In this document: one piece after another, positions 18,641-44,904 of the stretch
How the letters are laid out: every line of letters starts with the position of its first letter
Numbering within the stretch: the stretch's first letter is position 1
NCBI GenBank assembly: GCA_965206595.1
Contig: OZ242214.1
Span: 2,464,001-2,528,000, forward strand
DNA: 64,000 nucleotides
Direction of reading: 5' to 3'
Origin: Candidatus Latescibacterota bacterium
GTDB lineage: Bacteria > Latescibacterota > UBA2968 > UBA8231
Program-made: the position numbers and the translations under genes
Notes under the pieces: generated by a model
What the model was told of the DNA's origin: nothing
What the model saw: the letters and a program-made list of their open reading frames with translations, nothing else
Databases searched by the model: none

Positions 18641-18687
18641 TGCAAAGAAAGATATCACCTGTCAGAGGTTGTAAATTCAAACGGAAA

Positions 18688-18712
18688 CCGTCCGTGAAAC
18701 CGGGGTCTCCCA
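18688..18712 (+). mobile_element. isolated IS3-family right-end remnant
   Basis: CCGTCCGTGAAACCGGGGTCTCCCA resembles the IS3 right end CCGTCCACCGTACGGGGGTAGCTCCA at 47244-47269. Confidence 0.4.
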
Positions 18713-19017
18713 TCATGCTGGTACGTACCGCTGTACGCTGATCTCGTTTGCCCGGGAGCGCATCTGCGAGGCGTCATACCAGGCCTGCATCCGCAACAAC
18801 ATGTCCATGCTCACGGCAAAAGCCTTCTCGATACGAAGCGCCATCTCCGGCGATAGGGAAGCGTTGCCGTTCAGAAGGTCGGAAAGCGTCGCCCGGCGGA
18901 CTCCCAGAATCTCGGCTGCCCTGGTCACGTTCAGCCCCAACTCCTCGATAACTTCCGTTCTGATGAAGTCGCCGGATGCGCAGGGGTCATGTTCACTTCG
19001 ATGCCGCCGGTAGCCAT
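18713..19017 (-). CDS. higA: HigA family antitoxin (apparent 1-nt frameshift near 18972)
   Basis: MTPAHP/GDFIRTEVIEELGLNVTRAAEILGVRRATLSDLLNGNASLSPEMALRIEKAF; TGATG overlap with toxin. Confidence 0.85.
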
Positions 19018-23607: not shown

Positions 23608-23772
23608 TTACTCCCCCTGCGCGCAGGCCAATCCTTCCCGGGAGCGCCGCAGCGCCATGATCCTCGCCGCCTCCCGCAACGCCACCCGGTGCTGCTTTTC
23701 GATCTCGCGCTCCTGCCTCCTGCCGGGGCGCCGGTGCGGGAGCAGGTTGAGCTTGCCGCGCGCCTCGGTTAC
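23608..23772 (-). pseudogene. C-terminal remnant of a second PcfJ-like paralogue
   Basis: VTEARGKLNLLP...IEKQHRVALREAARIMAL...GE* aligns with VTEVRGRFNLET...VESRYLRLLTRSRKVLQHW of the adjacent gene. Confidence 0.6.
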
Positions 23773-25367
23773 CCCGCAGTCAGGCGTTCCTGTTGCATCC
23801 AGTGTTGCAGCACCTTCCGGGACCGGGTCAGAAGGCGAAGATAGCGGCTCTCCACCGCCTGCTTGCCGCGGGCCTTCTTCGCGTTGGTCTCCAGGTTGAA
23901 GCGTCCGCGAACCTCGGTCACGATCCGCGAGTGAGGATCCAGGGCGATGGTGAGCACCGGCTCCCGTTTGCCGCCGTTTTCGAACACGCTCACCGACCAG
24001 ATCGATTTGCCTCCGCCGCGGCAGCTTTTGACGTAGGAGGAGACGCAGTGGTGCATGTGTCGGCCCTCCTCGACCAGCTCGCGGTTGCTCAGCAGCTCGC
24101 GGATCGTCCAGAGGCTCTTTCCCTTGTTGGCGGGATCCGGTTCCTCGTAGCCGAACTCACCCACCGGGGATCGCTCCCATTGCACCAGGCGCTTCCAGCG
24201 CTTTCTGCCGGGCCGCTGTTCGGCCGGGGGCTCGTCCGGGTGCACCTGATTCGCCAGCTCCTCGTGCCACTGCTCCATCTGCCGCATCAGCTTGGGAATG
24301 CTCCGGCTCTTCATCGAAAGGGAAGGTTGCGCCGGGGGCAGCTGTTCCCATTCCCCCCCTCCCGGTCCCACGACGCGGCGATCGACGAACTTCTGGTTGT
24401 GGATGAAATCACAGATGGGACCGACCTGGGCCGGGTCGAGCATCGGGTTGCGGACGAAAAAGGTTACTACCGTCGCCCAGAACTCTTCCTCCTCGAAGGA
24501 GGACCCGAGCCGCGAGCGGATGACGGCGCGGGCCAGCGTCTCGCTGCCGCCCTGCCCGATCACCTGTCCCCACCTGAGGGCGTGGTCAAGCGGAAGGTCG
24601 TCGGGCCCCTCTAGGAATTCGTGGGCCATCCTCCTGGTGAAGGCCACAGGTAGGTCGGCGGTGCGAATGTTGCCGCCCTGTCCGACGTGGATGAACCAGT
24701 CCTGGCGCTCCTCCGCCGCGGCCGAGCGCCCCATCAGCCAGGCTGCGTCCATGAACACCGGTACGCGGTACCTCGCCAGCAGATGGCGGATCAGGCTGCT
24801 GAACTGCCGCCGCGGGTTGTGGCTTGAGGGGGACCAGGTGTCTACGGGCCTGATCCATTCGCGGTGCCGGCGGGCGAGCGCGGCCATCCCTTCGATGCAG
24901 GTGTTGCCGGGGATCTCACCCAGCTTCTTCATCGCCGGATACGGACCGAACAGGTCGGCCTCGCCCTGAGCTTGCAGAAACAACTGAAACAGTGCCCGGC
25001 GAGCCGGCCCTTTTTCGAAGGTGTTGAACTGGGCCCTGATCCTGTAGAGGTAATCGGCTCCGAGACGGCCCTTCTTGCTCGAATGCTCGTAGAGCTGGGT
25101 TATGGCGCTCTTCGGGTTGCGGCTCAGGCTGCGCTTGACCGCGAGGATCCGCTCCCCCTGCAGCCGGCCGGCCAACGCCCTTTCCTTGCGGATCTGCCCG
25201 TCGCTCTTGTAGACGCCGCCGCCCAGGCCGCGCCTGGCGCACCACTCGCGATACTCCTTCTCCGACCGGAGTCCGAGCTTCTCGATGTGGCGCTTCAGGT
25301 TGGACCGGTTGTTGTTGCGTTGAATCTCCTGGCTGCTCGTCCGCCGCTTGTGTCTTTTTCGTGGCAC
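23769..25367 (-). CDS. PcfJ domain-containing protein
   Basis: HLLARYRVPVFMD, WTIRELLSNRELVEEGRHMHHCVSSY...SIWSV; likely GTG start at 25367. Confidence 0.85.
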   Translation of the reverse strand: MPRKRHKRRTSSQEIQRNNNRSNLKRHIEKLGLRSEKEYREWCARRGLGGGVYKSDGQIRKERALAGRLQGERILAVKRSLSRNPKSAITQLYEHSSKKGRLGADYLYRIRAQFNTFEKGPARRALFQLFLQAQGEADLFGPYPAMKKLGEIPGNTCIEGMAALARRHREWIRPVDTWSPSSHNPRRQFSSLIRHLLARYRVPVFMDAAWLMGRSAAAEERQDWFIHVGQGGNIRTADLPVAFTRRMAHEFLEGPDDLPLDHALRWGQVIGQGGSETLARAVIRSRLGSSFEEEEFWATVVTFFVRNPMLDPAQVGPICDFIHNQKFVDRRVVGPGGGEWEQLPPAQPSLSMKSRSIPKLMRQMEQWHEELANQVHPDEPPAEQRPGRKRWKRLVQWERSPVGEFGYEEPDPANKGKSLWTIRELLSNRELVEEGRHMHHCVSSYVKSCRGGGKSIWSVSVFENGGKREPVLTIALDPHSRIVTEVRGRFNLETNAKKARGKQAVESRYLRLLTRSRKVLQHWMQQERLTAG

Positions 25368-25476
25368 TGTCTCCCCCACCAGCTCGCAGGCTTCCAGGAA
25401 AAGACCCTGAATCAACCCCGACGTGACCACCCCCGCGCACGACGGGAAGTCGATCATGCCGGATGAGGATGCCAAA

Positions 25477-27256
25477 TCAGTCTGCTCGGTGTTTCGGGAC
25501 AGGGACTCTGTCCTCCACCTGCTCTGCTGCTCTTCGCCGGGCAGCCTGTTCCAGCCCCTCCACGAAATCCCCGGTGACGGCGAGCCGCCATGAATCGCCG
25601 CGGTCGTCGGAGATCAACATGGCCGCGCCTCGGTCCCGCAGCACAATGTCGTAGCCGCCGGGAGCATCCGGGTTCTCCGTGGCGTCTTCGGGCCATTTGC
25701 GCGCGTATGCGCGCCGTTCCTCGGGCGTCATCAGATCCGGGTAGTATGCGTAGCTGACGAACAGCCTGCCGAGCCGGTCGATGCTGATCTTCTGGCGCCA
25801 GGCAGCGTAGTTGACGCGGAACGGGCTCACGAGAACCCGGTGCGGCTCCCAGTCCCGGCCCGCCTTCTTGCGCTGGTAGACCAGCTGAAAGCGGTAGTCG
25901 TCGCTGCCGGCCCAGCGGCTGACCAGGTGCAGGGTGTCGTCGTAGTCGCACAGCAGCGCCGTGTACGTGTAGCTGCCCCCGCCCTCGGGCGGCTTCGGGG
26001 TCCCGAACATCCGCGGCTCGGTCCATCCCTCCGTGCTGCTGTTGGGCGCCAGCGAGCGGGTGTACTGGAAGTTGTCGTGGTGGGCGCCGATGACGACGTG
26101 AAGGTAGCCCTTCGAGTCCACCGATATCGCCGGCGGGTCGTGGTTGTTTCGCCGGCTGAAACCGAGGAGCACGGGGTTGCTCAGCTCGCCGCTGGCGTGG
26201 TCGTAGGTGCGGATGTAGCTGGGAGCAAGGGAGCCGGACGAGTCCTTGTAGCGCAGCGCGTAGGGCACGTACTCCCCGTCCATCCCGGCCGACAGCGCCT
26301 CGGCCTCCTCCCGGTGCCGCTCGAGGGGCTCAATGCTCAGCCACACCACGTGGGTCCTGCCTCCGTAGGTGGCGCTGACGTTGCCGGCCCCCGAATGGGT
26401 CGGGGTGATCCAGTTCCTGAGCTTGCCGGCGATCGGCGGATCGGCGCGCGCCAGCAGGATCGTCTCGGGCGGCGTCAAGCGTCCGTCATCCCGCTTCTCC
26501 GCCACGAACAGGCTCAGCTCCCGGCCGCGTCCCTCGACCATCGGCGGCGGCCCGTCGATCTGGTTGTGTCCTTCGAGCCGCTCCAGCCGCTGGGCGCCGG
26601 TGTAGAGCTTGCGCTGAAACGGGGTGGAGTGAACCGCGGGCGACACGGTTTCGTAGAAGGTCCAGGTGCGCAGGCGGTCCCACGAGTGCGCCAGGCCGAA
26701 GGCATCGATGCGCCGCGCCGGCGTTTCCCGGAAGATGTCCTGGCGCTGCAGATGGGCGACGCGGGCCAGCATGTAGGCGTCGCCGTCCCTGTCGAAGGAG
26801 ATGAAGGGGCCGTTGCGGAAGGCGCTCCCCTCGATGCCGTCGTACTCCGCCTTCATCGCCGCGTCGAAGTCGAGGGCGATCCAGCCGCCTTCGTCATCGA
26901 GGGTGATCAGCTCGGTCCCTAACGCCATCCAGGGGCGGTTTTCCGCGTCGAACGATACCGGCGCCGGCACGTACCGGGGGGCGTACCCGAAAAGCTCCCC
27001 CTCCATGCGAAAGTACTTCTCGTGCTGGATCGGCGCGGTCACCGGGCCGGCAACCCCCAGCTCCGGACCGCCGTGATCGACGAACGGCTGGCCTGACGGC
27101 GACGGGGATGCCCACAGCAGTGCCACCGCGGCTGCGATGGCAGTAGCTGGCCCCGACCTGACTCGTGGCGCGGCCGCGATGGATGGGACCGTTCTGTCAG
27201 GTGGCGCAGCGGCAACCATCGCTCGCTCCTTCCTCTCTGGATCTATCTGCATCATG
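25477..27256 (-). CDS. BNR-4 repeat-containing secreted beta-propeller protein
   Basis: NNHDPPAISVDSKGYLHVVIGAHH, YTY...DDTLHLV, SDDRGDSW Asp-box; start codon uncertain. Confidence 0.75.
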
Positions 27257-27453
27257 CCCGCCCTCCATGTCATCGCGCTTGCAGGTGTAAACGGGAACAA
27301 CACCGGAAAAGGGAAACAGTTTCGCCCGCGTAACAGAAATTTTGGGTGTTGTCCGGCCGTAATTGCCGGCACGTGCATTCTGCTGGAACCATGCAGCACA
27401 GATAAGGAAGCCTGGTCAGCGATCTGGCCGAGGGCCTTTCCTGGGGAATTCAA

Positions 27454-27483
27454 TGTGACTACACTTGTCTTGATGTAGTTACA
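27454..27483. promoter_or_regulatory. inverted repeat, probable Phd-VapC autoregulatory operator
   Basis: TGTGACTACA-N10-TGTAGTTACA immediately upstream of the antitoxin start. Confidence 0.65.
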
Positions 27484-27494
27484 GGGAGATCGCA

Positions 27495-27761
27495 ATGAAC
27501 GCATCCGTACGCGACCTGAAGAGCAGGTTGTCGAGCTACCTTCGGCAAGTCCAGCGGGGAGAGACAGTCGTCGTAACTTCGAGGGGGAAGCCCATCGCCC
27601 GCCTCGTGCCGCTTCCGCCCCTCCTGTTGGAAGAGCGGCTGGCGACCTTGCCGGGGATCAATGCCGGGACGGGGGAAAAACCGAGGGGTGCCGCGCGCCC
27701 CGTGCGCGTCAAACCCGGACAGAAAAACGTCTCGGACATCGTGATGGAAGAGCGACCGTGA
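27495..27761 (+). CDS. Phd/YefM family antitoxin
   Basis: SVRDLKSRLSSYLRQVQRGETVVVTSRGKPIARLVP. Confidence 0.9.
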   Translation: MNASVRDLKSRLSSYLRQVQRGETVVVTSRGKPIARLVPLPPLLLEERLATLPGINAGTGEKPRGAARPVRVKPGQKNVSDIVMEERP

Positions 27762-28219
27762 TCCTCTTTCTCGACACATCGGCTCTCGTCAAGCTGTACG
27801 TCGAGGAGGCCGACTCCGAGACGGTACGTGGGTGGGTGGATGTGGCCGAGGAAATCGCCTGCCAGTGGCTCGCATACGTGGAGGCGCGATCTGCTTTGGC
27901 TGCCAAACGCCGTTTGGGCGACCTGTCCGACGCAGAGCTGGAGGAATGCAAGAAGGAGCTGGAGGAGGATTGGGAGAGATATCACCGTGTCGCGGTCACC
28001 CAGACTCTTCTGCGACGAGCCGGTGCTCTGAGCGAACAGCTCGGCTTGCGCGCTTATGACAGTGTTCACCTTGCGGGGGCCGAGTATCTGCAATCCTCGC
28101 TGGGAGTGCCGATAACCTTCGGGTCCTTCGACCGCCGACAGGTCGATGCTGCCTCCCGGCTGGGAATGCTCATCACACCGGTCGATGACCAGAACAAAGG
28201 CGGTAGTCCAACCAACTAA
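27758..28219 (+). CDS. vapC: VapC-family PIN toxin
   Basis: FLDTSALVKLYVEE, YVEARSAL, LRAYDSVHLA, SFDRRQ; GTGA overlap with antitoxin. Confidence 0.9.
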   Translation: MILFLDTSALVKLYVEEADSETVRGWVDVAEEIACQWLAYVEARSALAAKRRLGDLSDAELEECKKELEEDWERYHRVAVTQTLLRRAGALSEQLGLRAYDSVHLAGAEYLQSSLGVPITFGSFDRRQVDAASRLGMLITPVDDQNKGGSPTN

Positions 28220-28243
28220 CCCCCCAACAAAAGGACAATCCCC

Positions 28244-28400
28244 ATGAGCGGCACTCACCCCCGACCAACGACTTCTACCGCCCTGGGGGTTACCTCCTCG
28301 TCGAGGACGTCCTCGACCCCTCCGTCTTCACCCTCCCCATCCCCGAATCGACGCCATTGCCGATACCGCCACCCAGCAGGCCCACGCTGCCGGCGAGAGG
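28244..28400 (+). pseudogene. degraded N-terminal fragment of a PhyH-family gene
   Basis: across frameshifts reads LTPDQ..FYRPGGYLLVEDVLDP...IDAIADTATQQAHAAGE. Confidence 0.5.
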
Positions 28401-28462
28401 TTTCCCCCGAACAAGTCGGTCACACGTTTCCAGTGCTGGGAGCCGCGGCCGTAGGGTGAGGG

Positions 28463-29183
28463 TTGTCAAAGAGGACGGTTATAATCGATGCGTGCCTGGC
28501 CATCACACACGGCAACGCGCGTGCATTGGATCTGTTGACCGGGTTACAGCGACACAAGGTAGCGATCGCACAGCGTGCTGTCGCCGAGGTGACGCGGCAG
28601 CCGGCGAAGGATCAACTGACGAGAGCGATCGCGCGTGAACAGCTGGGAGTAGCGGCGATAGATCCACAAGACGGGAAGGAGCTGAATGAGCTTGTGCGGT
28701 TTGACCAGTCCGCCAAGTTCCGGGGTCGAGGCGACGGGGAGGTTCTGGCCTTGGCCTTTGCCAGGAAGTGGATCGTCGGCTCGGACGACCTGCCCGTGTG
28801 GCGGACAGGCATTGGAGGAGTTGGGCAACGCAAACGTGGCAGGGACGCTGGACTTCCTACGGTGGGCGGTGGAGGAAGACCGGATGGCGGTTAAGAAGGC
28901 GGTCGAGAGACTTCGAAGCCTGGACGTAGGGGAAGGGCTGTTCAAGCGACTTGAGCGTTCCGGGCAAGCCATTGAGCAAGTGCTTGGGGGTATTGGGGTC
29001 TTCAAGCAGCGGTCCGTTTGTCAATTCCCAAGATGTTTGGAAACAGGCAGGAACCCTGTGTTCTACCTGCTCTTCTGCTCCACAGGGCAAGCCGTTACCG
29101 AAAAGCCGGGGAGCCGGGGAAGCTACTACTCCTTTTCCTTTGAAATGATCTCGTTCAGGCGAGCCGTGGCGAGCCTCGTATAG
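28463..29183 (+). pseudogene. PIN-domain protein (DUF3368-like), frameshift ~28805; 3' end uncertain
   Basis: VIIDA, AVAEV, GDGEVLALA, VGSDD, then VAGTLDFLRWAVEE in the next frame. Confidence 0.6.
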
Positions 29184-30148
29184 AAAGAATTGGAATCTCC
29201 CTTCTCGATTATCTGGTTCAACCACTCCTTGGCTTTCATCATACGATCTTCGTACAATTCTAAGGATTTCTTTGAATCCTCCAATTTTTTCTTGGATTCT
29301 GCCATATGCTCCTGGGCTTCTTTTCGACTATTCTCGACTACCTTGGAAAGAAAGGGATCGCCTACGAAATTCGTGGCGGTTTTTTGACTAGATTCCGCCA
29401 AAATTTGCTTAATTTCGGAATCTTTTTTTTGGGATTCCGATTGTTGTAGGTGATTTAATCCTTCCCGCCAGTATGCCTGAGCAATTTGGTATTTCATAGC
29501 TGGTAAATTTCCATCTCGGGGAAATCCTTTTTCGAATTCTTGGTAGGCCGCCAATAAAGGTTCAATGTATTGGTTGAACGAGAATTTAATCCCGTTCTTC
29601 CCCGAAATGGTTTTAAATTTCTCAGTATGCGCTTTCTTTGCTGCGTCCGTTCCAGAGAATTCCCTAATGACTTTGTCATACCAGTCGCAGGCCAATTTAA
29701 CATGGTCTAAATAATTAGAATCGACTGTCCAGATGGTTTCTTTTATATCCCCTGACCAAAATTCACCATGCTTCAAGTACAACCTTGCGGTTACATCGCT
29801 GACGATGTCGCTGGACAGATCCGCGATTTCCTGTGCCAAGTAGTCAATCTGTTCGGAAACCAGTCCGGCTTCAGGAGACGTGGGATATTGATCTGTGAGT
29901 CTATTCCAGGTAGCGAGCGCGGCGGGAAGTCGCTTCTCATTAAAGGCAATTAGGCCAAGATGATAGAGCGAGGTCGCTTTATTGGAATCATCGGCATCGC
30001 TGTGGGCGATCTCAATAAAAATAACCTTTGCTTCGTCGACTAAACCATGCTCCTTGAGCATCAAGGCACGAGGAACCGTATCGGCAATACTGCGATTGGG
30101 GACATCGAAACCCATCGCAAGGGCGAGCAGGATGAGAAGACGTTCCAT
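29126..30148 (-). CDS. secreted TPR-like protein (BamD/CpoB-like repeats)
   Basis: signal peptide; SLYHLG...LTDQYPTSPEA, YDKVIREFSGTDAA, YQIAQAYW; AT-richer than flanks. Confidence 0.65.
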   Translation of the reverse strand: MERLLILLALAMGFDVPNRSIADTVPRALMLKEHGLVDEAKVIFIEIAHSDADDSNKATSLYHLGLIAFNEKRLPAALATWNRLTDQYPTSPEAGLVSEQIDYLAQEIADLSSDIVSDVTARLYLKHGEFWSGDIKETIWTVDSNYLDHVKLACDWYDKVIREFSGTDAAKKAHTEKFKTISGKNGIKFSFNQYIEPLLAAYQEFEKGFPRDGNLPAMKYQIAQAYWREGLNHLQQSESQKKDSEIKQILAESSQKTATNFVGDPFLSKVVENSRKEAQEHMAESKKKLEDSKKSLELYEDRMMKAKEWLNQIIEKGDSNSFYTRLATARLNEIISKEKE

Positions 30149-30329
30149 AAATATATCCTCCTGTGAAGTGGTGAAAGGCTAAACTAGGCAGCCCGCGGTT
30201 GCCGGCAGGAATGTCAAGGCCCGGTATGTCCGATAAGGCCAGAATCCCCCCGATTTCCGTATCTTTTTTGCGGATACTTCCTGAATGGCTATAACATAGC
30301 GGCAGGACCGATCTCACCTCTACCACACT

Positions 30330-30609
30330 TTATCGGTAATATCTCCTTAATTCATGCTCCATTAATTCCCTACTCTCCGTAGGAGTGGTCCCTCGTGGAA
30401 ACTCGGTGTCTAAAGCTTCCTCGACCGTTCGAATGGTCTTTTCGATGGCTTGGCTGGCCGCTTCTTTTCGGATATTTGTTTCTGATTTCCCATAGAAGGC
30501 CATGAGTTTTCTCCTCATTATAGGTGTATGGTGGTCGTCGATATTCCGGCCGTTCCTTAAGATAAAGCGGAAATGAATCTCAACTTGGTTATGGTTTTTT
30601 AATGTTCAC
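30330..30609 (-). pseudogene. short ORF starting just after the GTPase stop (probable 1-nt slip in an A6 run near 30598)
   Basis: GTG 3 nt after GTPase stop; restored frame reads VNIKNHNQVEIHFRFILRNG...MRRKLMAFYG...HELRRYYR*. Confidence 0.45.
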
Positions 30610-30611
30610 TT

Positions 30612-32894
30612 CTAAATCCCTTCTAATGAACCTCCGACCTCCTCAACAGCTTCCTTGACAACCTGGATAACATCGTCCACGAAATTTTGGGCCGCTATGT
30701 TCCTGATGGAAGTAATTGACGGCGCAGCAGAGTTATAAATCCGCTCTATCTCCCCCGCTCTTTGGTTGCTTGATCTTTTACCCCTGTAATCAAAAGCAGA
30801 TTGCCATTCATCGAGATGATCAACGATTAAACGTTGCGTTGACAAGTAGAAAATTCGGTCAGATACTTTCTGGCGTATCGTGTTGATGATGGCTTGCTTC
30901 TTATCGTCTGAAAGCGGGCGGCTTATGGTCCAATGATCAGGGGTATCCAGCCACCCAGAAATGCTAGACTGCAACTGACTTTTCAGATTAGCCACCGGTG
31001 TTAATCCATTATATTCGTCGTTATCCCACCTGTTGGCAAGGCGCCGGCACAACGCCTTAATTCGCGTCCAGTGTTCCTTAGGAAAATCCTTATAATATCT
31101 GAGCCCAAGCAATCCCCACCAAGGATTTTTGAACCCGTTAATAGCATCCTGTAGTGCGATTTCTAACTGGCGGATCTTGTAGACTGGCTTGGCATCAGGC
31201 AGGTCGGGAGGGATATTCGATTGCTGCATCTGCTTCAATAAACGATTCATATCTTTGACAAAACCGCGCGGTAGTTTATCCATTGCCTGATTCAGTCCAC
31301 CCAAGTAATAGTCATTGGCCTCCAGTCGTTGCCCTAGCATCTCCATTATCGACGGTGCCAGTTTTTCGCGCAGGCCATTTAGGGCATTACCGATTGCCGC
31401 GCGAACGTGATCCCTCTTCTGGGTATGGTTGCCGAGATTATCCCCCTTTACTTGGTCGAAGTGGGTGAAAACGACGGAGATTTTGTATACGTGACCGCTG
31501 TCCCCGACTGCCTTCAGGAGTTGCAGAGGGGCGGCCTGCATGGGCGATTTCGCGTTGTCCACCAGCAGAATCATATCCGTTTCAGAGAACCTCTCCGTTA
31601 CCTTTGTGGATATACTCGTCGCGTCCTTGGCTGAATGGCCTAGTCCTTCGCCATCCAGCAGCACGAGCTTTCGGTCATTGTCCTGTAGTTCAGGTCTAGA
31701 GGGCTGAAACGGGCCGCTTACACGAATGCCGTTTACCAACGGAGTAAGCAAACGTCCAAACTGCTGGCTATGGTTGCTGGTAAACCACCGTACCTGCTTC
31801 AAGAAGGTGTTGCGATCCTTTTCCTCGTAATACCAACAGGAGCGCCATCCCGTTTTTCCTTTATCAAATATTCCCTCCTCAATCAAGTTGAACCTGCTTT
31901 GGATAGCCTCCATTATATCAAGGGAGAGCTGTGTTAAGCCTTGATCTTCGTTCACTACGGTTCTGAAATCTTCCAGCCATTCCTGCCGCTTGTTGGAATT
32001 GTCTATATCCTCCAAGTCGCCGTGTTTTTGCGCGGTTTGTTTCTGTACTGCTGCAGCCACTTCCTTGATAAGGTCGACGTATTCGGATAGACGATCTTTG
32101 TTCTCGGTGAGCTCCGAGCCAGCGACTATTTCGTCTTTCGCCAAAGTAGCGGCCTCAGTTTCTTCATCTCCCATTTCGTATTCGTCATCCTCTTGCTCGG
32201 GCTGTTCCTGTTGCCAGGAACCGAGGATATAGGAAAGCCGAAAGCGCTGTTCTCGATGTTCCAAGAGAGCATCGGCGATATCCTTATCGGAGGCGTTGCT
32301 AATTGCACTGGTACACGCCTTTTCCAAGCATTCCTCAATGTCTCCTCTCACTTCGTGCTCAGTCAAAAAAGTAACTACAGCCTTGAAAGGAGGGCTGGGT
32401 GCAATAACTATTTCGATGTCGGCCGTTGTTGTCCTTGCCGTTGATGTAGAAGGAAAACGGTCACTCTTGTGATCGGAGCCGATAAGCTGACGTAGCAGGG
32501 TGGTTTTTCCGGCTCCCGTTGGACCAACGAGCATCACCCGTGCATAGCCGTCCTCTGGCGTAGGTAATTGAATCATGTCCTCCCGTAACTTTTTTGAATC
32601 GACCCGGCCAGCCTCCATATTGTCAAAGAACGCCGAGACAACGACTTCATCGAACTGTTTCTCCGCTTGGGAGCGCCGGTCAAGGCTCCACCAAGAGGAA
32701 TTAGCCAGCAACTCGTTAAGCTGCTCTACTAGCCGGTCAGCCTCGGTATCGTCCTGCGTCCCAAGACCACGCCGCACCTTCAGGCCAAACTTGCCGCGGG
32801 TATCAGTACGGCGCGGGTGACTGAAGATTACGCTCCAGCCCGGCCGATTTTGTGAGCGGGTTTTGGATGCCTTGTAGGTGGTTTTGGTTGCCAT
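30612..32894 (-). CDS. dynamin-like/TRAFAC GTPase with N-terminal integrase-arm-like segment
   Basis: GGAGG RBS + ATG 32894; G1 GPTGAGKT, G2 region STARTTT, G3 LLDGEG, G4 THFD; N-terminal WSVIFSHP...KVRRGLGTQDDTEA. Confidence 0.75.
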   Translation of the reverse strand: MATKTTYKASKTRSQNRPGWSVIFSHPRRTDTRGKFGLKVRRGLGTQDDTEADRLVEQLNELLANSSWWSLDRRSQAEKQFDEVVVSAFFDNMEAGRVDSKKLREDMIQLPTPEDGYARVMLVGPTGAGKTTLLRQLIGSDHKSDRFPSTSTARTTTADIEIVIAPSPPFKAVVTFLTEHEVRGDIEECLEKACTSAISNASDKDIADALLEHREQRFRLSYILGSWQQEQPEQEDDEYEMGDEETEAATLAKDEIVAGSELTENKDRLSEYVDLIKEVAAAVQKQTAQKHGDLEDIDNSNKRQEWLEDFRTVVNEDQGLTQLSLDIMEAIQSRFNLIEEGIFDKGKTGWRSCWYYEEKDRNTFLKQVRWFTSNHSQQFGRLLTPLVNGIRVSGPFQPSRPELQDNDRKLVLLDGEGLGHSAKDATSISTKVTERFSETDMILLVDNAKSPMQAAPLQLLKAVGDSGHVYKISVVFTHFDQVKGDNLGNHTQKRDHVRAAIGNALNGLREKLAPSIMEMLGQRLEANDYYLGGLNQAMDKLPRGFVKDMNRLLKQMQQSNIPPDLPDAKPVYKIRQLEIALQDAINGFKNPWWGLLGLRYYKDFPKEHWTRIKALCRRLANRWDNDEYNGLTPVANLKSQLQSSISGWLDTPDHWTISRPLSDDKKQAIINTIRQKVSDRIFYLSTQRLIVDHLDEWQSAFDYRGKRSSNQRAGEIERIYNSAAPSITSIRNIAAQNFVDDVIQVVKEAVEEVGGSLEGI

Positions 32895-32933
32895 CGTCTT
32901 CCTCCTTGACTGGAAAGGTGAGAGAAAAGGTGT

Positions 32934-33013
32934 GTTGTTCGACGTTGTAACGAGGAAGGAATTTAGTAGCTTGGGGTGCATCTGTCAAGGATTTTGTTAC
33001 AACACCGAACAAC
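32934..33013 (-). promoter_or_regulatory. sigma70 promoter (TTGACA-17-TAAATT) bracketed by 18-bp inverted repeats
   Basis: -35 at 32983-32988, -10 at 32960-32965 on minus strand; GTTGTTCGACGTTGTAAC (32934-32951) vs GTTACAACACCGAACAAC (32996-33013), 16/18 complementary. Confidence 0.75.
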
Positions 33014-33187
33014 GTGCTATTGCGGGCACACCTTTTCCCTTCGCCGCGCTCCGCAGGACCGAAAGAGCATTTAATTTGTCTTCTCATTATGGTGCGAAGG
33101 TGCACCGGCCGGCCCCTTCAACGACCATCGAGGTCCAGGGAACAGCTCAGATTTCCAGTCAGCCTATCCGAATTGGGATAGGCTCCT

Positions 33188-34423
33188 TCAACGACCGCCG
33201 AGATCCCAGGGAATGGCCCAGTCCTGCTCGGATACCTGCAGTATTTCCCTTGTCGGCGCGATGACCAGTCCGGGTGCGATGCGCAGTCGAGGGTAGGTTT
33301 TGCGGAAGGCGGTGATTCCCGTCGTGTCGCGGCGGGAAGGGACGCTTCCGAGCTTGATTTCGATGGGGTAGAATCTGCCGTCCCGTTCGAGAAGGAGGTC
33401 GACTTCCGCTCCTCCGCTCGTCCGCCAGTGGTGCATCTGGGGAGGAGTGGGCATGGCGCCCGCCTGTTTGCGGATTTCAGCGACTACCGCGGTCTCGAAA
33501 AGGGCGCCCAGCATGGGGTGCCCTCCCAGTGCCTCCGGAGAGGACAACAGTTGGGCATGGCACGTCATACCGGTATCTGCGAGATAGCCCTTGGGTTTGC
33601 CGCTTACGCGCTTGACGGCGTTTCCCGAGTACGCAGGCACCTCGAACCATTGGTAGGTCGCCTTCAACAGCCCCAGCCAGCGATCCGCGGTCTGCGGGGT
33701 CACTCCCAGTTCCCGGCCCAATTGCCTGCGGTTGATTTCCTGTGCCGAAAGGGCAGCGCAAAGACGGATGAATCGTCCGAAGAGCTGCCAGTCAGCTACG
33801 TCTGCGAGCAGACGCACGTCCCGCTCGATATAGGTGCGCTGATAGGCTGCATGGAAATCGGGAACGAACGCGGCTTCGATCAGCGTGGCATCCGGCAGGC
33901 CGCCTCGCCACAGAGACTCGTAGAGCGTTCGCGTATGCTGTAGCCGCGACGGCGGGGAAGCCAGGAACTTTGCCGGGTCGGCTATCCAACTGGACAGCCA
34001 GGAACCCTCGGATCCCGCGGCTTCTGCCAGGCTGAATCCCTCCAGGTCGAGGAAGGCAGCCCTCCCGGCAAGACTTTCCGAGACGGAGGTCAGCACACTC
34101 CACTGTTGGGACCCGCTGAGAATGTATTGTCCGGGGGACCGATCCTTGTCGACCTCGCGTTTGAGGCTAGCGATCAACTCCGGCGCGTACTGGACCTCGT
34201 CGAGGACCAAGGGGGGTCGGTTGTTGGCCAGAAACAGTTCCGGATCCTGGCGTGCATTCCCCACGTCGACAACCGGATCGAAAACGACGATGTCCGCCTT
34301 GTCACCGTAGAGATGCTGCAGCAAGGTGCTCTTGCCAACTTGTCGGGCACCTGAAAGAACGACGACCGGAAACGCGGTCGCGAGCTCCCGAAGTCTTCGC
34401 GTCAACAGTCTTTGTCGGTACAT
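33188..34423 (-). CDS. AAA_14 ATPase + DUF4143 (PD-(D/E)xK) protein
   Basis: GARQVGKST, LDEVQ, SESLAGR, KPKGYLADTG, EVDLL...PIEIK. Confidence 0.9.
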   Translation of the reverse strand: MYRQRLLTRRLRELATAFPVVVLSGARQVGKSTLLQHLYGDKADIVVFDPVVDVGNARQDPELFLANNRPPLVLDEVQYAPELIASLKREVDKDRSPGQYILSGSQQWSVLTSVSESLAGRAAFLDLEGFSLAEAAGSEGSWLSSWIADPAKFLASPPSRLQHTRTLYESLWRGGLPDATLIEAAFVPDFHAAYQRTYIERDVRLLADVADWQLFGRFIRLCAALSAQEINRRQLGRELGVTPQTADRWLGLLKATYQWFEVPAYSGNAVKRVSGKPKGYLADTGMTCHAQLLSSPEALGGHPMLGALFETAVVAEIRKQAGAMPTPPQMHHWRTSGGAEVDLLLERDGRFYPIEIKLGSVPSRRDTTGITAFRKTYPRLRIAPGLVIAPTREILQVSEQDWAIPWDLGGR

Positions 34424-39567: not shown

Positions 39568-39633
39568 GACCGGACTGGTTGCACTACAGGTACTGCGGCG
39601 CCCCGCCGCGTAAAGCATAATGCGATTCCACAC

Positions 39634-40329
39634 ATGGAAATAAACAAAGAAAATGATGGCCCCGAATTCGAGGTAGAGATTCACTTGGAATCCGGCCTGG
39701 ACATGGCAAGGAATGAACTTGACGGCTTCTCCGAAGAACTGCGCACCTGGCTGACGGTGCTCGGGAAACAGATCGTGTCCCTCCAGACAAACCTCGTGGC
39801 AGATGAAGACAATAAACTTGCGAACGTGTCGCGGACTCTACTCGAGGAGCCTTGGATCAAGTACGTTTCAGATCTTGCCTTCGCCGAAGATGCGGTAACC
39901 CGCGCGTCCGCAGGGTTTGATCGTTATGTTGATTTGCGGCCGATTTTGACAGGCTACGAACTCTCTGAAGTGGCAACAAAATGCCTGCAAGAGGCGGGAC
40001 GAATGTTCCTATTCTCTTTTGACAACGGCTGTGTGACATTCTGCGGTTCGGCGCTGGAACAGACTCTGCGAAGTTCACTCGAAGATGCAGGCCATACCCC
40101 TGGTGAAAAGGATACCATCGGTGCACTAATCACAGAGGCTTGCAAGCGCACCCTCCTTTCAGAGGAGGCGGTAAAAGCGGCACATGATCTGAAATGCACG
40201 AGAAACGATGTGATTCATCGGCCGTTTACAGTCGAAGGTGAAGACCTGAAATACGAAGCACTCAAGGCGATTGAAAACCTTGGGAAGGTTCTCGAGACGC
40301 TTGGTCTGAATCTAAGGTCAGAGATATAA
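39634..40329 (+). CDS. DUF4145-like HEPN domain protein
   Basis: EAGRMF...CGSALEQTL...LI..A...RNDVIH (Rx4H). Confidence 0.7.
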   Translation: MEINKENDGPEFEVEIHLESGLDMARNELDGFSEELRTWLTVLGKQIVSLQTNLVADEDNKLANVSRTLLEEPWIKYVSDLAFAEDAVTRASAGFDRYVDLRPILTGYELSEVATKCLQEAGRMFLFSFDNGCVTFCGSALEQTLRSSLEDAGHTPGEKDTIGALITEACKRTLLSEEAVKAAHDLKCTRNDVIHRPFTVEGEDLKYEALKAIENLGKVLETLGLNLRSEI

Positions 40330-40405
40330 CCTCATCTCCTATCAGTGAATCCCTGAGAGAGGTCACTCTGCGTTGCTGGACTTGGGGCAAACAGGAACCA
40401 ACACC

Positions 40406-41437
40406 ATGCCCACGCACTTGACTACCAACCTCCCCCAGCCAGCCCAGACCAGACTTACCTTCGCGGCTTGCTTGGCTGTCTCCCTTGCGGGGCCAGCCAT
40501 CGGGGCAACCTGCAATAACTGGAATACCGAGGGATTTTTCCAAACCGCCACGGTTAAGGAATTGACCGATTGCCTTAAAGTCGGTGCCGACCATAACGCC
40601 CGGGACGAGATGGGGCGAACTCCCCTGCATACGGCGGCCCGGATCAACAGTAACCCTGCGGTCATTGTTGTCTTGCTCAAGGCTGGGGCCGAAATAAACT
40701 CACTGGACAATAATGGCGTCACTCCCCTTCATCTGGCGGCTGGACTTAACAAAAATCTGCAAGTCATCATTGCCTTGCTGGATGCCGGAACGGATCCGAA
40801 TGTGCTGGCCAAAGGTGGCCACACCCCCTTGCATCTGGCGGCCTACAACAACACCCCAAGAATTATTGCTACCTTGCTGGAGGCTGGGGCCAACCTGGAT
40901 GCGCGGACCGATGATGGCGACACCCCCCTGCATCTGGCGGCCACGAACAACACCCCGACGATTATTTCCGCCTTGTTGGACGCTGGGGCCAACCTGAATG
41001 CAAAAAACAAAAAGGGACTAACTCCCCTGCATCTGGCGGCACAGCACAACAATCACCCGGGGGTTGTCACCGCATTGACAAAAACCGGATTTGCGTTGTT
41101 CAAGGGCTCCTCCGACGCTGACCTGAGTGCTCGGGACGAAGGCGGGCTTACCTCGTTGCATCTGGCGGCCCAGTACAACGAAAACCCAGAGGTCGTCACC
41201 GCCCTACTCAAGGCGGGCCTCGACCTTCATGCCCGGGACCAACGTGGCCTCACTCCCCTGCATTGGGCAGCTTGGAAGAACAAAAACCCGGCGGTCATCA
41301 CCACCTTGCTGGATGCAGGAGCCGACCCAGCGGCTCGAACTCTACGAGGGAGCAGGGTCCCCGCGGACTACGCCAAGAGAAACGACGCACTTAAGGGGAC
41401 GGCAGTCTACTGGCGGCTGCATGAAGGTCGATTTTGA
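40406..41437 (+). CDS. secreted ankyrin-repeat protein
   Basis: about seven GxTPLHLAA...LLxAGA repeats after a leader peptide and CNNWNT..FF cap. Confidence 0.95.
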   Translation: MPTHLTTNLPQPAQTRLTFAACLAVSLAGPAIGATCNNWNTEGFFQTATVKELTDCLKVGADHNARDEMGRTPLHTAARINSNPAVIVVLLKAGAEINSLDNNGVTPLHLAAGLNKNLQVIIALLDAGTDPNVLAKGGHTPLHLAAYNNTPRIIATLLEAGANLDARTDDGDTPLHLAATNNTPTIISALLDAGANLNAKNKKGLTPLHLAAQHNNHPGVVTALTKTGFALFKGSSDADLSARDEGGLTSLHLAAQYNENPEVVTALLKAGLDLHARDQRGLTPLHWAAWKNKNPAVITTLLDAGADPAARTLRGSRVPADYAKRNDALKGTAVYWRLHEGRF

Positions 41438-41543
41438 TGATTACACATCCTGCCGAACAGTCCAGCTCGTCATCGGGTGACAGGGCGTCCGGCGGATCGC
41501 TTGGGCTGTTTCATGCAGACTTACCCATCATTTGGGGGTAGGA

Positions 41544-42275
41544 ATGAAACGCTGGTGCATTTTCATCGACATCCTTGGCTTCAGCAAGCTCTGGGAATCC
41601 AACGAGTATCAAGCGCTCCATTCTCTTCGGGAACTGATGAGGGCCATTTTTCGAATTGGAACCAGGGTATATCCGGAAGAACCGCAACGCTTGTTCGTGC
41701 ATCAAATGGGAGATGGCTTTGCCATCGTGAGCGAATTCCGCGAGGAATCGCTCGAACGCCCGATAGCAATCGCCATTGCACTGATGCGGTGCGTTGCCAC
41801 CACTGGGGCATTTGCGGCCGCTGCCATAGCGGAAGGAGAACATGCAGACATCACCGGTTGCTACCCGCGAGAAGTGACAGAAAATACCGAACAACCGAAC
41901 AATGGTATAGTCCGGTTGGGTAGAGGGTTGATGACCTTGTCCACAGTGATGGGAACAGCCTTTATCTGCGCGTATCGTCTCCACAACGCAGCGCCATCGG
42001 GGCCGTTTTTGACGGTGTCGGCGAACCACCCTGATCGGGTCCCTGATGGCCTACCTGTCCGGGCGACCAAAAGCCGGAGTTGTACGTCGGTATTGTCGAT
42101 CGACTGGGTCCGGGCTGAACGGACACTTTTGTCAGACATACAGGAGAAGGCTGACATCAGCACTCCGTCGCAATGCGAGCTCGTGCGGAAAATCCAAGAG
42201 TATTGCAAACAGTATGAATTAATACGCAAGAAGTGGAACCGCTACCTTCGCGATCTTCTCGATATTGAAGTGTAG
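41544..42275 (+). CDS. class III nucleotide cyclase-fold protein
   Basis: FIDILGF and MGDGF metal-binding Asp motifs, AAIAEG, GTAFICAYRL. Confidence 0.6.
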   Translation: MKRWCIFIDILGFSKLWESNEYQALHSLRELMRAIFRIGTRVYPEEPQRLFVHQMGDGFAIVSEFREESLERPIAIAIALMRCVATTGAFAAAAIAEGEHADITGCYPREVTENTEQPNNGIVRLGRGLMTLSTVMGTAFICAYRLHNAAPSGPFLTVSANHPDRVPDGLPVRATKSRSCTSVLSIDWVRAERTLLSDIQEKADISTPSQCELVRKIQEYCKQYELIRKKWNRYLRDLLDIEV

Positions 42276-42510
42276 CATGGTTGTGAGGGCTGATGAGTGA
42301 ATCGTTCGAAGTAGAAGTGGATCTGATTCCTGAAGAAAAGTCCTGTTCCGACAACTAAGGCCCGGTTGGTACGGCCTGTCCTACAAAAGCCCGGGGTTTT
42401 TCAAACGATTGCGTGGGGAGCGTAGTCCCATGAGCGGAATGGTTGATTCGATTTTGCAAAGGGGATTATATATGTGGCTGCGCAAGGCGGCCAACCCCCC
42501 CCCCCCCCGC

Positions 42511-42894
42511 TCAGGGCCTGTCCAAATAGCGGATGGCGATGGTCTTGACCGTGATCTTGTTTCCGCCCGGCATGGTGATGGGGGTCTGGCCAATCATGTG
42601 GGAGGTATAGGGGACGTACTGGTTTTCCTGCGGCAATGGGATTATCGCATGGGCACCGATCTGCTGCGCCTTTTCCTTTGCTTTCTTGAGCACCTCCGGA
42701 TAGGTGTTATAGATGCTTCCGTTCCCTTCGACAATGGCGATGACCTCGAACTTTCTGTCCTGGGGCTCTTCGAACAGGATTTCGACGCTGTCGCTCGGCT
42801 CGAATTTCCGGGTATCGAGCATGACAACACTGCTCGCAGCGCACCCAAGGACGGAAATCGCCAAGGCCGCCGCCAAGCTCCGTGCGAGCACCAT
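42511..42894 (-). CDS. small lipoprotein (YbjQ/dodecin-like fold possible)
   Basis: lipobox VLGC; FEVIAIV...KAKEKAQQIGAHAII. Confidence 0.6.
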   Translation of the reverse strand: MVLARSLAAALAISVLGCAASSVVMLDTRKFEPSDSVEILFEEPQDRKFEVIAIVEGNGSIYNTYPEVLKKAKEKAQQIGAHAIIPLPQENQYVPYTSHMIGQTPITMPGGNKITVKTIAIRYLDRP

Positions 42895-43327
42895 CCTGTT
42901 CAGGCCCTTGAACCCTTCACGGATTTCCTGGGTCAGTTTGGCGATGTCTGCCTTGATAGCGCCAGTGCCTTTACCAATGGGGGACATTTGTGCCTCCTTT
43001 GGGATTCTTAATATCCATAATGTGAAGATAAAACGCCCCTTTTCGATGTCCATCCCCCCGGCATGCAGATAGGTGTTTCCGCACACCCCAAATAGGGTGG
43101 TAACTCCCGTAGTGTCAACCAGTTATGCCACAATTAATGAGAGCTTCGTCGGATTCCGCATGATCGCGCGGGCAATCCCGCCGCGGTGCCCGGGCCGCCT
43201 CGTCGTCGGTCGCCACGATCACCACGCGGAGGTATCGGGTTGTTCGGCTCGGCATCGGTCGATTCGGTGGGATTTGTCGTTTTGCCGCGACAGGCCGAAT
43301 CGTCTGATTGACCATCCATAACCCCGA

Positions 43328-43350
43328 GGTATATACCTATGATATATACC
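43328..43350. promoter_or_regulatory. vapBC operator inverted repeat
   Basis: GGTATATA-N7-TATATACC upstream of the vapB RBS. Confidence 0.7.
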
Positions 43351-43370
43351 CTGCCACAGGAGGTACATCT

Positions 43371-43598
43371 ATGCAGACAGCGAAGCTGTTCAACAACGGC
43401 CGCAGCCAAGCCGTGAGGCTCCCGAAGGAGTTTCGTTTCAGCGGAGACGAGGTCTACATCAAGAAATACCAGGGCATCGTCATGCTCTTGCCTAAGGAAT
43501 CCCCTTTGATCTCGCTCGTGGACAGTCTGGACCGCTTTTCCAGTGATTTCATGGACGAGAGGAATCAGCCCAATCAGCAGCAGAGAGCGTCTCTGTGA
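43371..43598 (+). CDS. vapB: VapB antitoxin (AbrB/MazE fold)
   Basis: MQTAKLFNNGRSQAVRLPKEFRF. Confidence 0.92.
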   Translation: MQTAKLFNNGRSQAVRLPKEFRFSGDEVYIKKYQGIVMLLPKESPLISLVDSLDRFSSDFMDERNQPNQQQRASL

Positions 43599-43998
43599 TC
43601 GATTTCCTTCTCGACACCGACATCGCATCTACCTCATCAAGAGACAACCGGCGCAAGCTTTGGCCAGACTGCAAGCCCTGGGTATCTCGCAAGTCGGAAT
43701 CTTCCACGATCGCGCTCAGCGAATTGGGTACGGGGTCTCGAAGAGTTCGAAACCAGAGCAAAACAAGCTGGCTCTCGCTGAATTCGTCGCCCCGCTGGAG
43801 ATCATCGCTTACGGCGACGCGGCAGCAGCACATTACGGCCGCATCAGAACCTTGCTTGAGCGTCAAGGCACCCCGATCGGCCGGTTGGACACCCTGATCG
43901 CAGCACATGCATCGGCCCTCGGCTGTACCCTCGTGACGAACAACGACAGGGAGTTTTCACGCATTCCCAATCTCGTGGTCGAGAACTGGATCAGCTGA
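43595..43998 (+). pseudogene. vapC: VapC PIN toxin with frameshift(s)
   Basis: FLLDTDI then IYLIK...GTPIGRLDTLIAAHA...LVTNNDREFSRIPNLVVENW in another frame. Confidence 0.85.
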
Positions 43999-44164
43999 TC
44001 CTGCCGTCCTGTCAACAAGGACCAAGCGCATTGTAGGAGAACGACCTAAGCCAAGAAGTCCAAAAGAATAAATGGGTTATGGGAGTGTACACCGCGAAGA
44101 CATAAGAACGTGTTGCACTTAGGTTGCGCCCCCGTCGGATCAGGGGCGTTCCCATCACGAAAGG

Positions 44165-44803: not shown

Positions 44804-44904
44804 ACTTACCTGCCCACCGGCTTGGGTAGCGTGGCAGTCGCTCTTTCGAGTGCCTGGACGGCTGCCTGATCCTTGTTTGCGAAGCACCTGACCGTCCCTG
44901 TGAA

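Follow-up and report, generated by a model that had tools for sequence, protein, structure and literature searches.

A dynamin-like GTPase with an integrase-type N-terminal domain on a Latescibacterota islet: a candidate one-gene bacterial immunity protein

The GTPase gene and its product

The stretch of DNA analysed here, called the window below, comprises 64,000 nucleotides (nt) of contig OZ242214.1 (positions 2,464,001 to 2,528,000) from a Candidatus Latescibacterota bacterium. Its subject is a minus-strand gene coding for a large dynamin-like GTPase (P0001), which shares a low-GC islet with a small downstream gene, a TPR protein gene and a PIN-like open reading frame (ORF). An earlier note, made from the sequence alone, had singled out this gene as a possible defence or sensing module. 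The features of the gene and of the 760-amino-acid (aa) product, several of them taken from an AlphaFold2 (AF2) model and its per-residue confidence (pLDDT), are as follows (all on the minus strand):

30612 to 32894, coding sequence of the GTPase (P0001), 760 aa, including the TAG stop at 30614-30612; coding part 30615-32894
32901 to 32907, Shine-Dalgarno-like AAGGAGG, read from the sequence, 6 nt 5' of the ATG at 32894
32960 to 32988, sigma-70-like promoter match (TTGACA, 17-nt spacer, TAAATT; 10 of 12 positions) from a consensus scan, a pattern only
32610 to 32894, N-terminal module, aa 1-95: DUF6538-like sheet and helix at aa 9-64, then linker helices
32367 to 32561, G domain part 1, aa 112-176: G1 and switch I/G2, with fold matches from residue ~112
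31680 to 32366, acidic helical insert in the G domain, aa 177-405, placed by AF2 secondary structure, pLDDT and charge
31425 to 31679, G domain part 2, aa 406-490: G3 (DGEGLGH, 414-420) and G4 (FTHFD, 476-480)
30615 to 31424, C-terminal helical stalk or trunk, aa 491-760, from the AF2 model; BDLP and IniA alignments reach residue ~755

Counted from its first ATG, the GTPase ORF would be 789 aa long (30612-32981, minus strand). All 26 full-length relatives that were aligned start within a few residues of the Met encoded by the ATG at 32894, and because these starts agree with the AAGGAGG upstream, this ATG was taken as the start, giving the 760-aa protein that the earlier note had listed. Promoter-like sites were counted around the gene, six in the region against 3.8 +/- 2.0 in shuffles.

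The four GTPase motifs are found at GPTGAGKT (G1, 124-131), STARTTT (G2, 151-157), LLDGEG (G3, 412-417) and THFD (G4, 477-480), just where the earlier note had read them, and are invariant or nearly so across 27 close and 111 diverse members of the family (the latter being representatives of 640-800 aa), G2 taking the form TS..TT at 150-156. In G4 the family has His at the position where dynamins carry Lys. Between G2 and G3 lie ~257 aa, and residues 176-405, which sum to a net charge of -23, are predicted to be largely helical, in agreement with the acidic helical insert of about 250 aa that had been described. This insert (aa 177-405) varies in length and sequence between relatives, and contains an acidic run (aa 226-262; 14 D/E vs 1 K/R) that is disordered in the model. 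Everything C-terminal of G4 is modelled as helical, which fits the stalk proposed beforehand. Among the 111 diverse members the stalk carries the conserved motifs HW..KAL.RR (608-618) and G.GS...RA (705-713), as well as a conserved F..PW...LG loop (588-597) that could form an amphipathic, paddle-like tip. No hydrophobic or transmembrane segment was found in the protein, the Kyte-Doolittle average over 19 residues peaking at 1.3.

A dynamin-type core

A full-length AF2 model was built from 27 sequences. Searched against the PDB with Foldseek, it gave seven matches at E<=1e-3, all of them in the dynamin superfamily (SynDLP, Campylobacter DLP1/2 and Drp1; best E 2.9e-6), followed by IniA, Fzo1, dynamin, EHD and Mx. 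The Foldseek probability was 1.0 to SynDLP, DLP1/2 and Fzo1. VIA re-alignment ranked the matches as follows:

MFN1, Z 14.0 (227 aa, 4.0 A)
Fzo1, Z 13.8
SynDLP, Z 13.5
BDLP, Z 13.4 (378 aa, model residues 115-755)
IniA, Z 12.6
Mx, IRG, dynamin, EHD and Toc33, interspersed with translation-factor and spliceosomal GTPases, Z 10.6-11.7

On the basis of these fold matches from both programs and of the helical stalk, the GTPase is accepted as belonging to the dynamin superfamily, nearest at the level of the modelled fold to the class of fusion dynamin-like proteins (DLPs) and mitofusins. The designation dynamin-like given in the earlier note thus stands at fold level, the threshold of the Dynamin_N model not being reached. 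Pfam matches to the GTPase are at P-loop level only (MMR_HSR1, 24.7 bits), and a PDB sequence search with the full-length profile likewise returned P-loop matches only, while no NCBIfam model matched. The nSTAND_NTPase5 family (PF25199) gave 22.2 bits against a cut-off of 34, over residues 101-138 only, and 25.8 bits in the variant P0269. Complex prediction for two copies of residues 100-560 returned a median score of 0.13 against a mark of 0.42, which speaks neither for nor against self-association.

An N-terminal domain related to that of tyrosine integrases

The N-terminal domain (aa 1-95) was modelled separately with AF2 from 67 sequences (pLDDT 81.4). Three strands (9-13, 20-30 and 36-43) are followed by a helix (49-64), the first 47 residues are strongly basic (12 K/R vs 1 D/E, net +11), and RRGLGT at aa 41-46 is nearly invariant in relatives. 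In a permissive Pfam scan of ten N-termini, DUF6538 was the sole recurring match, appearing sub-threshold in 4/10 with 12.7-14.8 bits; the same scan gave no DUF6538 match for the N-terminus of the window GTPase itself. DUF6538 was not found in 31 relatives, nor in four genomes with GTPase loci, and domains for comparison were gathered from one class, in which 25 of 151 genomes contain them. A Phage_integrase catalytic domain lies downstream in 7/10 DUF6538 ORFs.

When the 67 N-termini were compared with 23 DUF6538 segments by hhalign, columns 23-65 of the former aligned with columns 17-60 of the latter (43 columns, probability 69.8%, P 4.1e-5, score 27.6). The reversed control scored 11.4 and 100 column shuffles 9.5 +/- 2.0 (maximum 17.3), so that 0/100 reached 27.6. 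Because the score exceeds every shuffle and the reversed control, the resemblance to an integrase domain is supported at profile level, and the N-terminus appears to be related to DUF6538, an N-terminal domain of tyrosine integrases. The likeness to integrase arm modules which the earlier note had seen in this region is borne out at that level, by the profile alignment and the sub-threshold matches together.

Structure comparison with arm-type folds was compatible with this relationship and not decisive. Against the N-domain model, the N-terminal domain of lambda Int (1z1b) gave Z 3.9 (2.4 A over 51 aa), a second structure, 2wcc, Z 3.4, and AP2 domains Z 3.6, values that all lie in the noise range. 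The PDB sequence search with the N-domain profile returned no matches and the Atlas search with the N-domain no usable match. Of the fold and profile check that had been proposed for aa 1-100, the profile part therefore came out positive (DUF6538), while Foldseek returned nothing and the Z-scores to lambda Int and AP2 stayed within noise. As for DNA binding by this candidate domain, it is the charge alone (+11, aa 1-47) that speaks for it.

Family size, distribution and a swappable N-terminal slot

The word-indexed protein search scored 8000 proteins, of which 4071 matched at E<=1e-3. The 120 best relatives listed are all full-length, 58-86% identical and named only "hypothetical protein", with Gemmatimonadetes and Chloroflexi labels. 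Exhaustive HMMER searching of representatives at 50% identity gave 1160 matches at E<=1e-3; 833 of them reach E<=1e-10, and 396 reach E<=1e-30. The relatives with a taxon label come at the least from Gemmatimonadota, Chloroflexota, Pseudomonadota, Actinomycetota and a metagenome genome labelled Leptospira. The family is named by no model of Pfam, NCBIfam or PADLOC v2, in keeping with the statement of the earlier note that this is not a named system.

Within single lineages the gene is sparsely distributed. The window genome has one copy; counting this genome, the gene occurs in 3/61 related genomes (E<=1e-10) and in 6/168 genomes of the phylum (E<=1e-20), three of these six belonging to one other genus of the same family (61-63% identity). 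With tblastn, it was detected on 11 plasmids (Bradyrhizobium, Agrobacterium, Rhizobium, Caballeronia, Azospirillum and Rhodococcus) and was absent from 50,697 phage records.

The N-domain is present in 83 of the 111 diverse representatives and missing in 28, and the copies on Rhodococcus plasmids, which start near residue 92-100, are without it too. In P0254, a protein of 934 aa from the representative library, a Swt1-like HEPN domain (HEPN_Swt1, E 8.3e-28) precedes the same core in place of the N-domain. Members of the HEPN superfamily are mostly RNases, and a variable head on a constant NTPase core is a pattern described for conflict proteins (according to the accessible parts of PMC3710099 and PMC7159879, respectively). 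Because 28/111 members lack the N-domain and P0254 has HEPN at the same place, the constant core appears to carry a swappable head, of either integrase or HEPN type. Two further proteins, P0252 and P0269, have other N-terminal extensions of ~105-125 aa with no family match.

The small downstream gene and the search for partners

One further gene follows the GTPase on the same strand:

30330 to 30518, minus strand, small gene P0002, 62 aa from ATG 30518, more likely 57 aa from ATG 30503

The start at ATG 30503 is more likely because GAGGAG lies upstream of it and most homologues have 57 aa. The earlier note had placed a second ORF 3 nt after the GTPase stop. A GTG does occur 2 nt past the TAG (30614-30612), and it opens six codons only; the start of P0002 lies 93 nt (ATG 30518) or 108 nt (ATG 30503) after the stop. 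On the minus strand, the two genes are not separated by any terminator-like site, and the RNA between them shows no special fold (z-score 0.36). Homologues of P0002 form eight clusters, mostly of 57 aa, with the conserved core IRKEAASQAI...FPRG.TPTESR.

For the comparison of neighbourhoods, 10 genome loci and 80 metagenome loci were gathered, the metagenome scan having given 600 pattern matches of which 506 encode relatives, and 85 of the 90 yielded a GTPase ORF. Searched against all stop-to-stop frames of every locus collected, the P0002 profile matched only the window and two others (L148 and L149), in which the homologue lies directly downstream on the same strand and the GTPases are 63% identical to that of the window. 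Two more P0002 homologues are on contigs equal in size to contigs with GTPase relatives (54,070 and 3,941 bp), which is suggestive only. P0002 is therefore a real gene, added in one subclade and not characteristic of the family.

No neighbour is conserved across the 85 GTPase loci. When 750 neighbour ORFs were clustered, no family occurred in >6 loci, and near-duplicate contigs contribute to the larger clusters. In 25 of the 70 loci with >=500 nt downstream, an ORF on the same strand begins at a distance of up to 150 nt; 11 of these ORFs are <=120 aa, and none of the short downstream ORFs belongs to a cluster of neighbours that extends beyond a few loci. A family-wide operon partner was thus rejected, with no neighbour shared across 85 loci and P0002 in three loci only, and the GTPase stands alone family-wide. 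The closely coupled small partner postulated in the earlier note was found in the small subclade (the window, L148 and L149) and has no counterpart in the family as a whole.

Two local arrangements were also observed. In six loci (L057, L060, L064, L069, L072 and L080) a convergent gene of ~210 aa lies 28-48 nt past the GTPase stop and is followed by a smaller gene; these loci belong to one subclade, and at least some are near-duplicate contigs. In two Rhodococcus pyridinivorans plasmids (L027 and L028, 6500-7950), two or three small same-strand genes precede the GTPase without N-domain. The latter were considered as partners and rejected, being common to two close plasmids only (79-92% identity) and to no other locus.

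Defence and mobile-element genes around family members

Seven plasmid loci were read for neighbours within 8 kb. Product annotations of defence type were present in six of them, four clear and two looser:

H5, clear: CBASS-like patatin and nucleotidyltransferase, giant helicases
H8, clear: type I restriction-modification (RM)
H7, clear: BrxL and AbiEii
H9, clear: Abi and integrase
H2, looser: DGQHR proteins and radical SAM
H6, looser: DEAD helicase/DUF3883, GIY-YIG and DUF4258
H1: metabolic genes and an XRE regulator only

In one Agrobacterium plasmid locus (L023; NZ_CP072139.1, 8652-16636), a hypothetical gene of 598 aa follows the GTPase homologue after 13 nt. Farther on, an ATP-binding protein, a radical SAM protein and two DGQHR-domain proteins are encoded on the opposite strand, a cluster that may be a defence cluster of DNA-modification type.

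A broader scan covered 234 ORFs of >=100 aa within 2.5 kb of the GTPase gene in 70 loci, arranged in two sets, after near-duplicate loci (L033, L035, L037, L048, L062, L072, L075, L080 and L104) had been dropped. The commonest Pfam families among these neighbours (counts for the two sets joined by a plus sign where both are represented) include AAA_21 (4+2), SMC_N (3+2), AAA_15 (2+2) and Phage_integrase, the last with four of the 117 neighbours in set A3. There are also N6_Mtase (1+2), Methylase_S (3), HsdM_N (2), Z1 (2), UvrD-helicase (2) and EcoRV (1), as well as the type IV secretion system (T4SS) coupling protein (1), DUF3363 (2), DUF6441 (1+3), phage cement and tube proteins and Arm-DNA-bind_3. 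With PADLOC models (E<=1e-10), of which one neighbour protein can match several, hits were obtained to type I methyltransferases (1e-252 and 1e-125), three specificity subunits, GajA (5e-76), GajB (2e-41), PtuA, AriA, SduA (1e-159), AbiLi, HEC-01A and HEC-06. In qualitative terms, the GTPase loci show a mobile-element and defence-type setting, in which genes of RM, Gabija, Septu, PARIS, Shedu, CBASS and BREX systems and integrase genes are frequent.

The acquired islet and the surrounding genes

In the window, the GTPase gene forms part of a region that differs from its surroundings in composition and in its presence among related genomes:

28434 to 33126, no strand, acquired islet of 4693 bp, defined by whole-genome comparison with G001 and G002 and by junction alignment
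29126 to 30148, minus strand, TPR protein P0003, 340 aa, low GC, with sub-threshold TPR_6 and YbgF/BamD-like matches

In the same-genus genome G001, whose flanks are 97-98% identical, 198 bp of unrelated sequence take the place of 28434-33126, and a second genome of the genus, G002, is without 27133-33186. The GTPase gene and the islet both have a GC content of 0.503, the flanks one of 0.66-0.67, which confirms the remark in the earlier note that the locus is AT-richer than the chromosome. Four genes make up the islet, namely the PIN-like ORF, the TPR protein, the small ORF and the GTPase; no integrase or transposase was found in its 4.7 kb. The GTPase gene has been acquired horizontally on this 4.7-kb low-GC islet. 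Its absence from G001, its occurrence in 6/168 genomes and on 11 plasmids, and the neighbours described above together bear out the view that the gene is accessory, patchily distributed and set among genes of mobile or defence type.

A 26-nt imperfect direct repeat (33111-33136 and 33181-33206, 85% identity) copies the 3' end of the AAA-DUF4143 gene and sits exactly on the right boundary of the islet. It is the only repeat of the islet, with none matching at the left boundary, and the duplication may be a recombination scar. A 16-nt repeat at the right edge has no further copy within the window, and no attL/attR pair can therefore be defined.

The N-terminus of P0003 is hydrophobic as judged by eye. 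Homologues of this protein were found in no other GTPase locus, and it was rejected as a partner of the GTPase, not being conserved with it. At the left end of the islet lies the PIN-like ORF (28463-28894, plus strand, 143 aa), which has no Pfam match, a GC content of 0.61 and no counterpart in G001. It may be frameshifted, as its C-terminal part seems to run on in another frame, to ~29000, in the ORF at 28686-29183.

Outside the islet, Phd/YefM and PIN genes (27495-28219) and an AAA_14-DUF4143 ATPase gene (33188-34423) were identified, so that all the toxin-antitoxin, PIN and AAA-DUF4143 neighbours named in the earlier note are in place, with a PcfJ-like protein besides. The PcfJ-like domain (E 1.3e-8) belongs to a 568-aa protein (23769-25475, minus strand) adjoining a 675-aa BNR_4 protein; the PcfJ family is known from conjugative plasmids. 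A second stretch of lower GC (39600-45500; 0.55-0.56 vs ~0.66), which opens with a 231-aa ORF without Pfam match (39634-40329), may be another acquired islet, and further dips to 0.55-0.58 at 13000-15000 and 18000-19000 suggest more acquired DNA.

Proposed function and alternative explanations

We propose that the GTPase is a stand-alone, one-gene conflict protein directed against phages, plasmids or integrative and conjugative elements, with a basic head engaging nucleic acid and a core assembling in a GTP-driven manner, a proposal to which we give about an even chance. The basic N-domain would bind the invader's nucleic acid, or tether the protein to DNA, and the dynamin-like core would self-assemble by binding and hydrolysing GTP, a general property of the superfamily that dynamins and Mx exemplify. 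Such an assembly could keep the target from being replicated, integrated or packaged, or trigger abortive infection; in HEPN variants, the head would cleave RNA. More speculatively, the acidic insert might mask the basic N-domain at rest, an intramolecular arrangement suggested because a head of +11 pairs with an insert of -23. In the small subclade to which the window belongs, the 57-aa downstream protein would be an added, probably regulatory, partner.

Several points weigh against this proposal, which is drawn from computation. The confidence of the full-length model is moderate (pLDDT 68.7). The Dynamin_N match (PF00350; residues 120-474) scores 19.1 bits, below the cut-off of 27 bits, and once the P-loop is removed no Pfam family recurs in ten members (Dynamin_N, 14.6 bits in 1/10). 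The DUF6538 matches obtained with hidden Markov models are likewise all under their 27-bit cut-off, Foldseek with the N-domain found nothing at E<=0.001, and generic enolase N-domains outrank lambda Int and AP2 in the structure comparison (Z 5.8 vs 3.4-3.9). A literature search on the word DUF6538 found no paper, and hence no published function or DNA binding for this domain. Many of the neighbours are ordinary genes (tRNA synthetases, chaperonins and metabolic enzymes), and the defence-type setting is a qualitative observation and not an enrichment over control neighbourhoods, which is not demonstrated because no such controls were scanned. Finally, we know of no bacterial precedent for a dynamin directed at nucleic acid, the known bacterial DLPs acting on membranes.

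A bolder form of the proposal would make the protein a bacterial restriction factor of the Mx kind and a new functional class of dynamins. An arm-type head derived from integrases would recognise an invader's DNA (phage, plasmid or integrative element), and GTP-driven polymerisation on that DNA would stop it from being replicated, integrated or packaged; as a DNA mimic, the acidic insert would mask the head until triggered, and sister variants would use an HEPN RNase head instead. We regard this fuller scheme as unlikely.

The fold itself raises the question of a membrane-acting protein, since the best matches are the fusion and repair DLPs MFN1, Fzo1, BDLP, SynDLP and IniA (Z 12.6-14.0). Like DynA, IniA, BDLP or LeoA, the GTPase would then seal, tether or remodel the cytoplasmic membrane under stress, phage lysis possibly included, and its N-domain would be an adaptor to protein or lipid rather than a DNA-binding module. 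Phage protection has been reported for DynA (in the accessible text of PMC8844932) and for a two-gene dynamin system (in that of 10.1101/2022.05.11.491447), and the F..PW...LG loop at aa 588-597 could provide a paddle-like tip. However, no hydrophobic or transmembrane segment is present (Kyte-Doolittle maximum 1.3 over 19 residues), a tandem or paired DLP gene is absent, the gene occurs patchily and on an islet, which is not the pattern of a housekeeping gene, and the N-terminal slot holds domains of nucleic-acid type (DUF6538-like or HEPN); a membrane role appears rather improbable to us. The same slot would be given another meaning if the protein were a switch similar to STAND proteins or DO-GTPases, in which C-terminal helices sense the invader, oligomerisation depends on GTP and the N-domain is the effector (an RNase in HEPN variants; DNA-binding, toxic or blocking here). 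A variable N-domain, a constant NTPase and C-terminal helices correspond to the layout of NTP-dependent conflict systems, and a G3 of the form DGEG with invariant Glu is a described DO-GTPase trait (both in the available portion of PMC7159879); the HEPN_Swt1 variant (P0254) and the sub-threshold nSTAND_NTPase5 matches round the P-loop (22.2-25.8 bits) point the same way. These nSTAND matches are, however, confined to the P-loop region and fall short of the 34-bit cut-off, the hhalign probability for SrfC/Virul_Fac is <1%, no GAP1-like or other conserved partner is found, and the fold matches dynamins and not STAND ATPases, so that a switch of this kind also strikes us as doubtful.

The integrase-related N-domain would also suit a cargo or maintenance gene of a mobile element with no part in host immunity, which might, for example, compete for or modulate the arm-type sites of integrases and thereby exclude rival integrative elements, or partition or stabilise its carrier. 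The gene is indeed carried by conjugative and mobilisable plasmids, and its neighbours include integrase, Arm-DNA-bind_3, T4SS coupling protein, DUF3363 and phage-like structural genes. Yet no mobile-element gene is consistently adjacent (Phage_integrase, 4/117 neighbours in A3), the islet lacks integrase and transposase as well as terminal repeats beyond the one 26-nt duplication, and the gene was not found in the 50,697 phage records; we hold this explanation to be very unlikely.

Significance

Dynamin-like GTPases take part in animal immunity, as Mx, GBP and IRG proteins do, and in bacterial immunity through DynA and the two-gene LeoA-type system; the known cases are thought to act on membranes or nucleocapsids. 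The present family appears to couple a dynamin core to a head of nucleic-acid type, either integrase-like or, in one variant, HEPN. We see in it a good candidate for a new immunity protein of bacteria, encoded by a single gene. Should the gene serve defence, it would add a compact one-gene system, offer a tractable model for aiming a dynamin scaffold at nucleic acid instead of membrane, and provide a second context in which binding by the uncharacterised DUF6538 integrase domain can be studied.

Comparison with known systems

In its presumed mode of action, the GTPase most resembles the immunity GTPases of the dynamin family. The closest structural relatives, bacterial DLPs and mitofusins (BDLP of Nostoc, SynDLP, Campylobacter DLP1/2, IniA and MFN1/Fzo1), have the same extended G domain and long helical stalk. 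The sequence likeness of the GTPase to them is at P-loop level only (Dynamin_N, 19.1 bits), and it differs in having a 230-aa acidic insert and a basic integrase-type N-domain, in being a single mobile gene and in having no hydrophobic or transmembrane segment.

The two-gene dynamin defence system LeoA/LeoBC, which we take to be the one published under the name Eleos, likewise consists of dynamin-like GTPases and occurs in defence islands, with a reported co-localisation of 60%. As described in the accessible text of 10.1101/2022.05.11.491447, a LeoA-type system is an operon of two consecutive DLPs, and its defence requires the phosphate-binding motif. The present GTPase is, in contrast, single-copy in its genome and has no conserved neighbour in 85 loci, and the PADLOC models LeoA (E 5.3e-4, 17.2 bits, residues 110-153 only) and LeoBC (E 3e-3) reach it only around the P-loop. 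Identity with LeoA/LeoBC was rejected, and the GTPase placed outside this system, because both a two-gene operon and a profile match are absent.

Mx and MxB of animals are also large GTPases of the dynamin family and appear in the fold list with Z 10.6-11.7. They restrict viruses cell-autonomously, and their targets are viral nucleoprotein structures rather than membranes. Only the superfamily fold is common to the two, Mx being without an integrase-type N-domain, and the parallel between them may be one of functional analogy. DUF6538 proteins (PF20172), for their part, have at the same N-terminal place a domain of ~60 aa in which strands are followed by [SG]-L-x-T-x-D-x-x-x-A and a helix; there it is fused to a recombinase and here to a GTPase, with model scores under the cut-off.

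The best PADLOC match of all is mad8 of MADS (PDLC04140, E 1.3e-8), residues 120-342 aligning with profile positions 30-185 of 314. The MADS operon has eight genes, among them those for a methyltransferase, MAD3/4 and MAD7/8, the last pair being an ATPase-associated module (according to the accessible part of PMC13662399), and none of this context is present at the GTPase locus. The identification was rejected, the mad8 match covering half of the profile, and the GTPase lies outside MADS for want of the operon. When the whole protein was searched in the Atlas, the results were unnamed clusters and a SrfC/Virul_Fac lead with a language-model score of 0.92, to which hhalign of 27 or 111 members against five SrfC-like ORFs lent no support, with probabilities of 0.8% and 0.6%. 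We assume that SrfC stands for the DO-GTPase systems. These have a conserved GAP1 partner downstream or paired GTPases (in the accessible sections of PMC7159879), and because no GAP1-type partner occurs in the 85 loci, the GTPase falls outside them as well. In literature searches, which covered papers and not supplementary candidate lists, no account was met of an integrase-type N-domain joined to a dynamin-like GTPase. Taken together, these sequence comparisons point to a distinct, large and unnamed family of the dynamin superfamily, with a new architecture and a plausible immune role.

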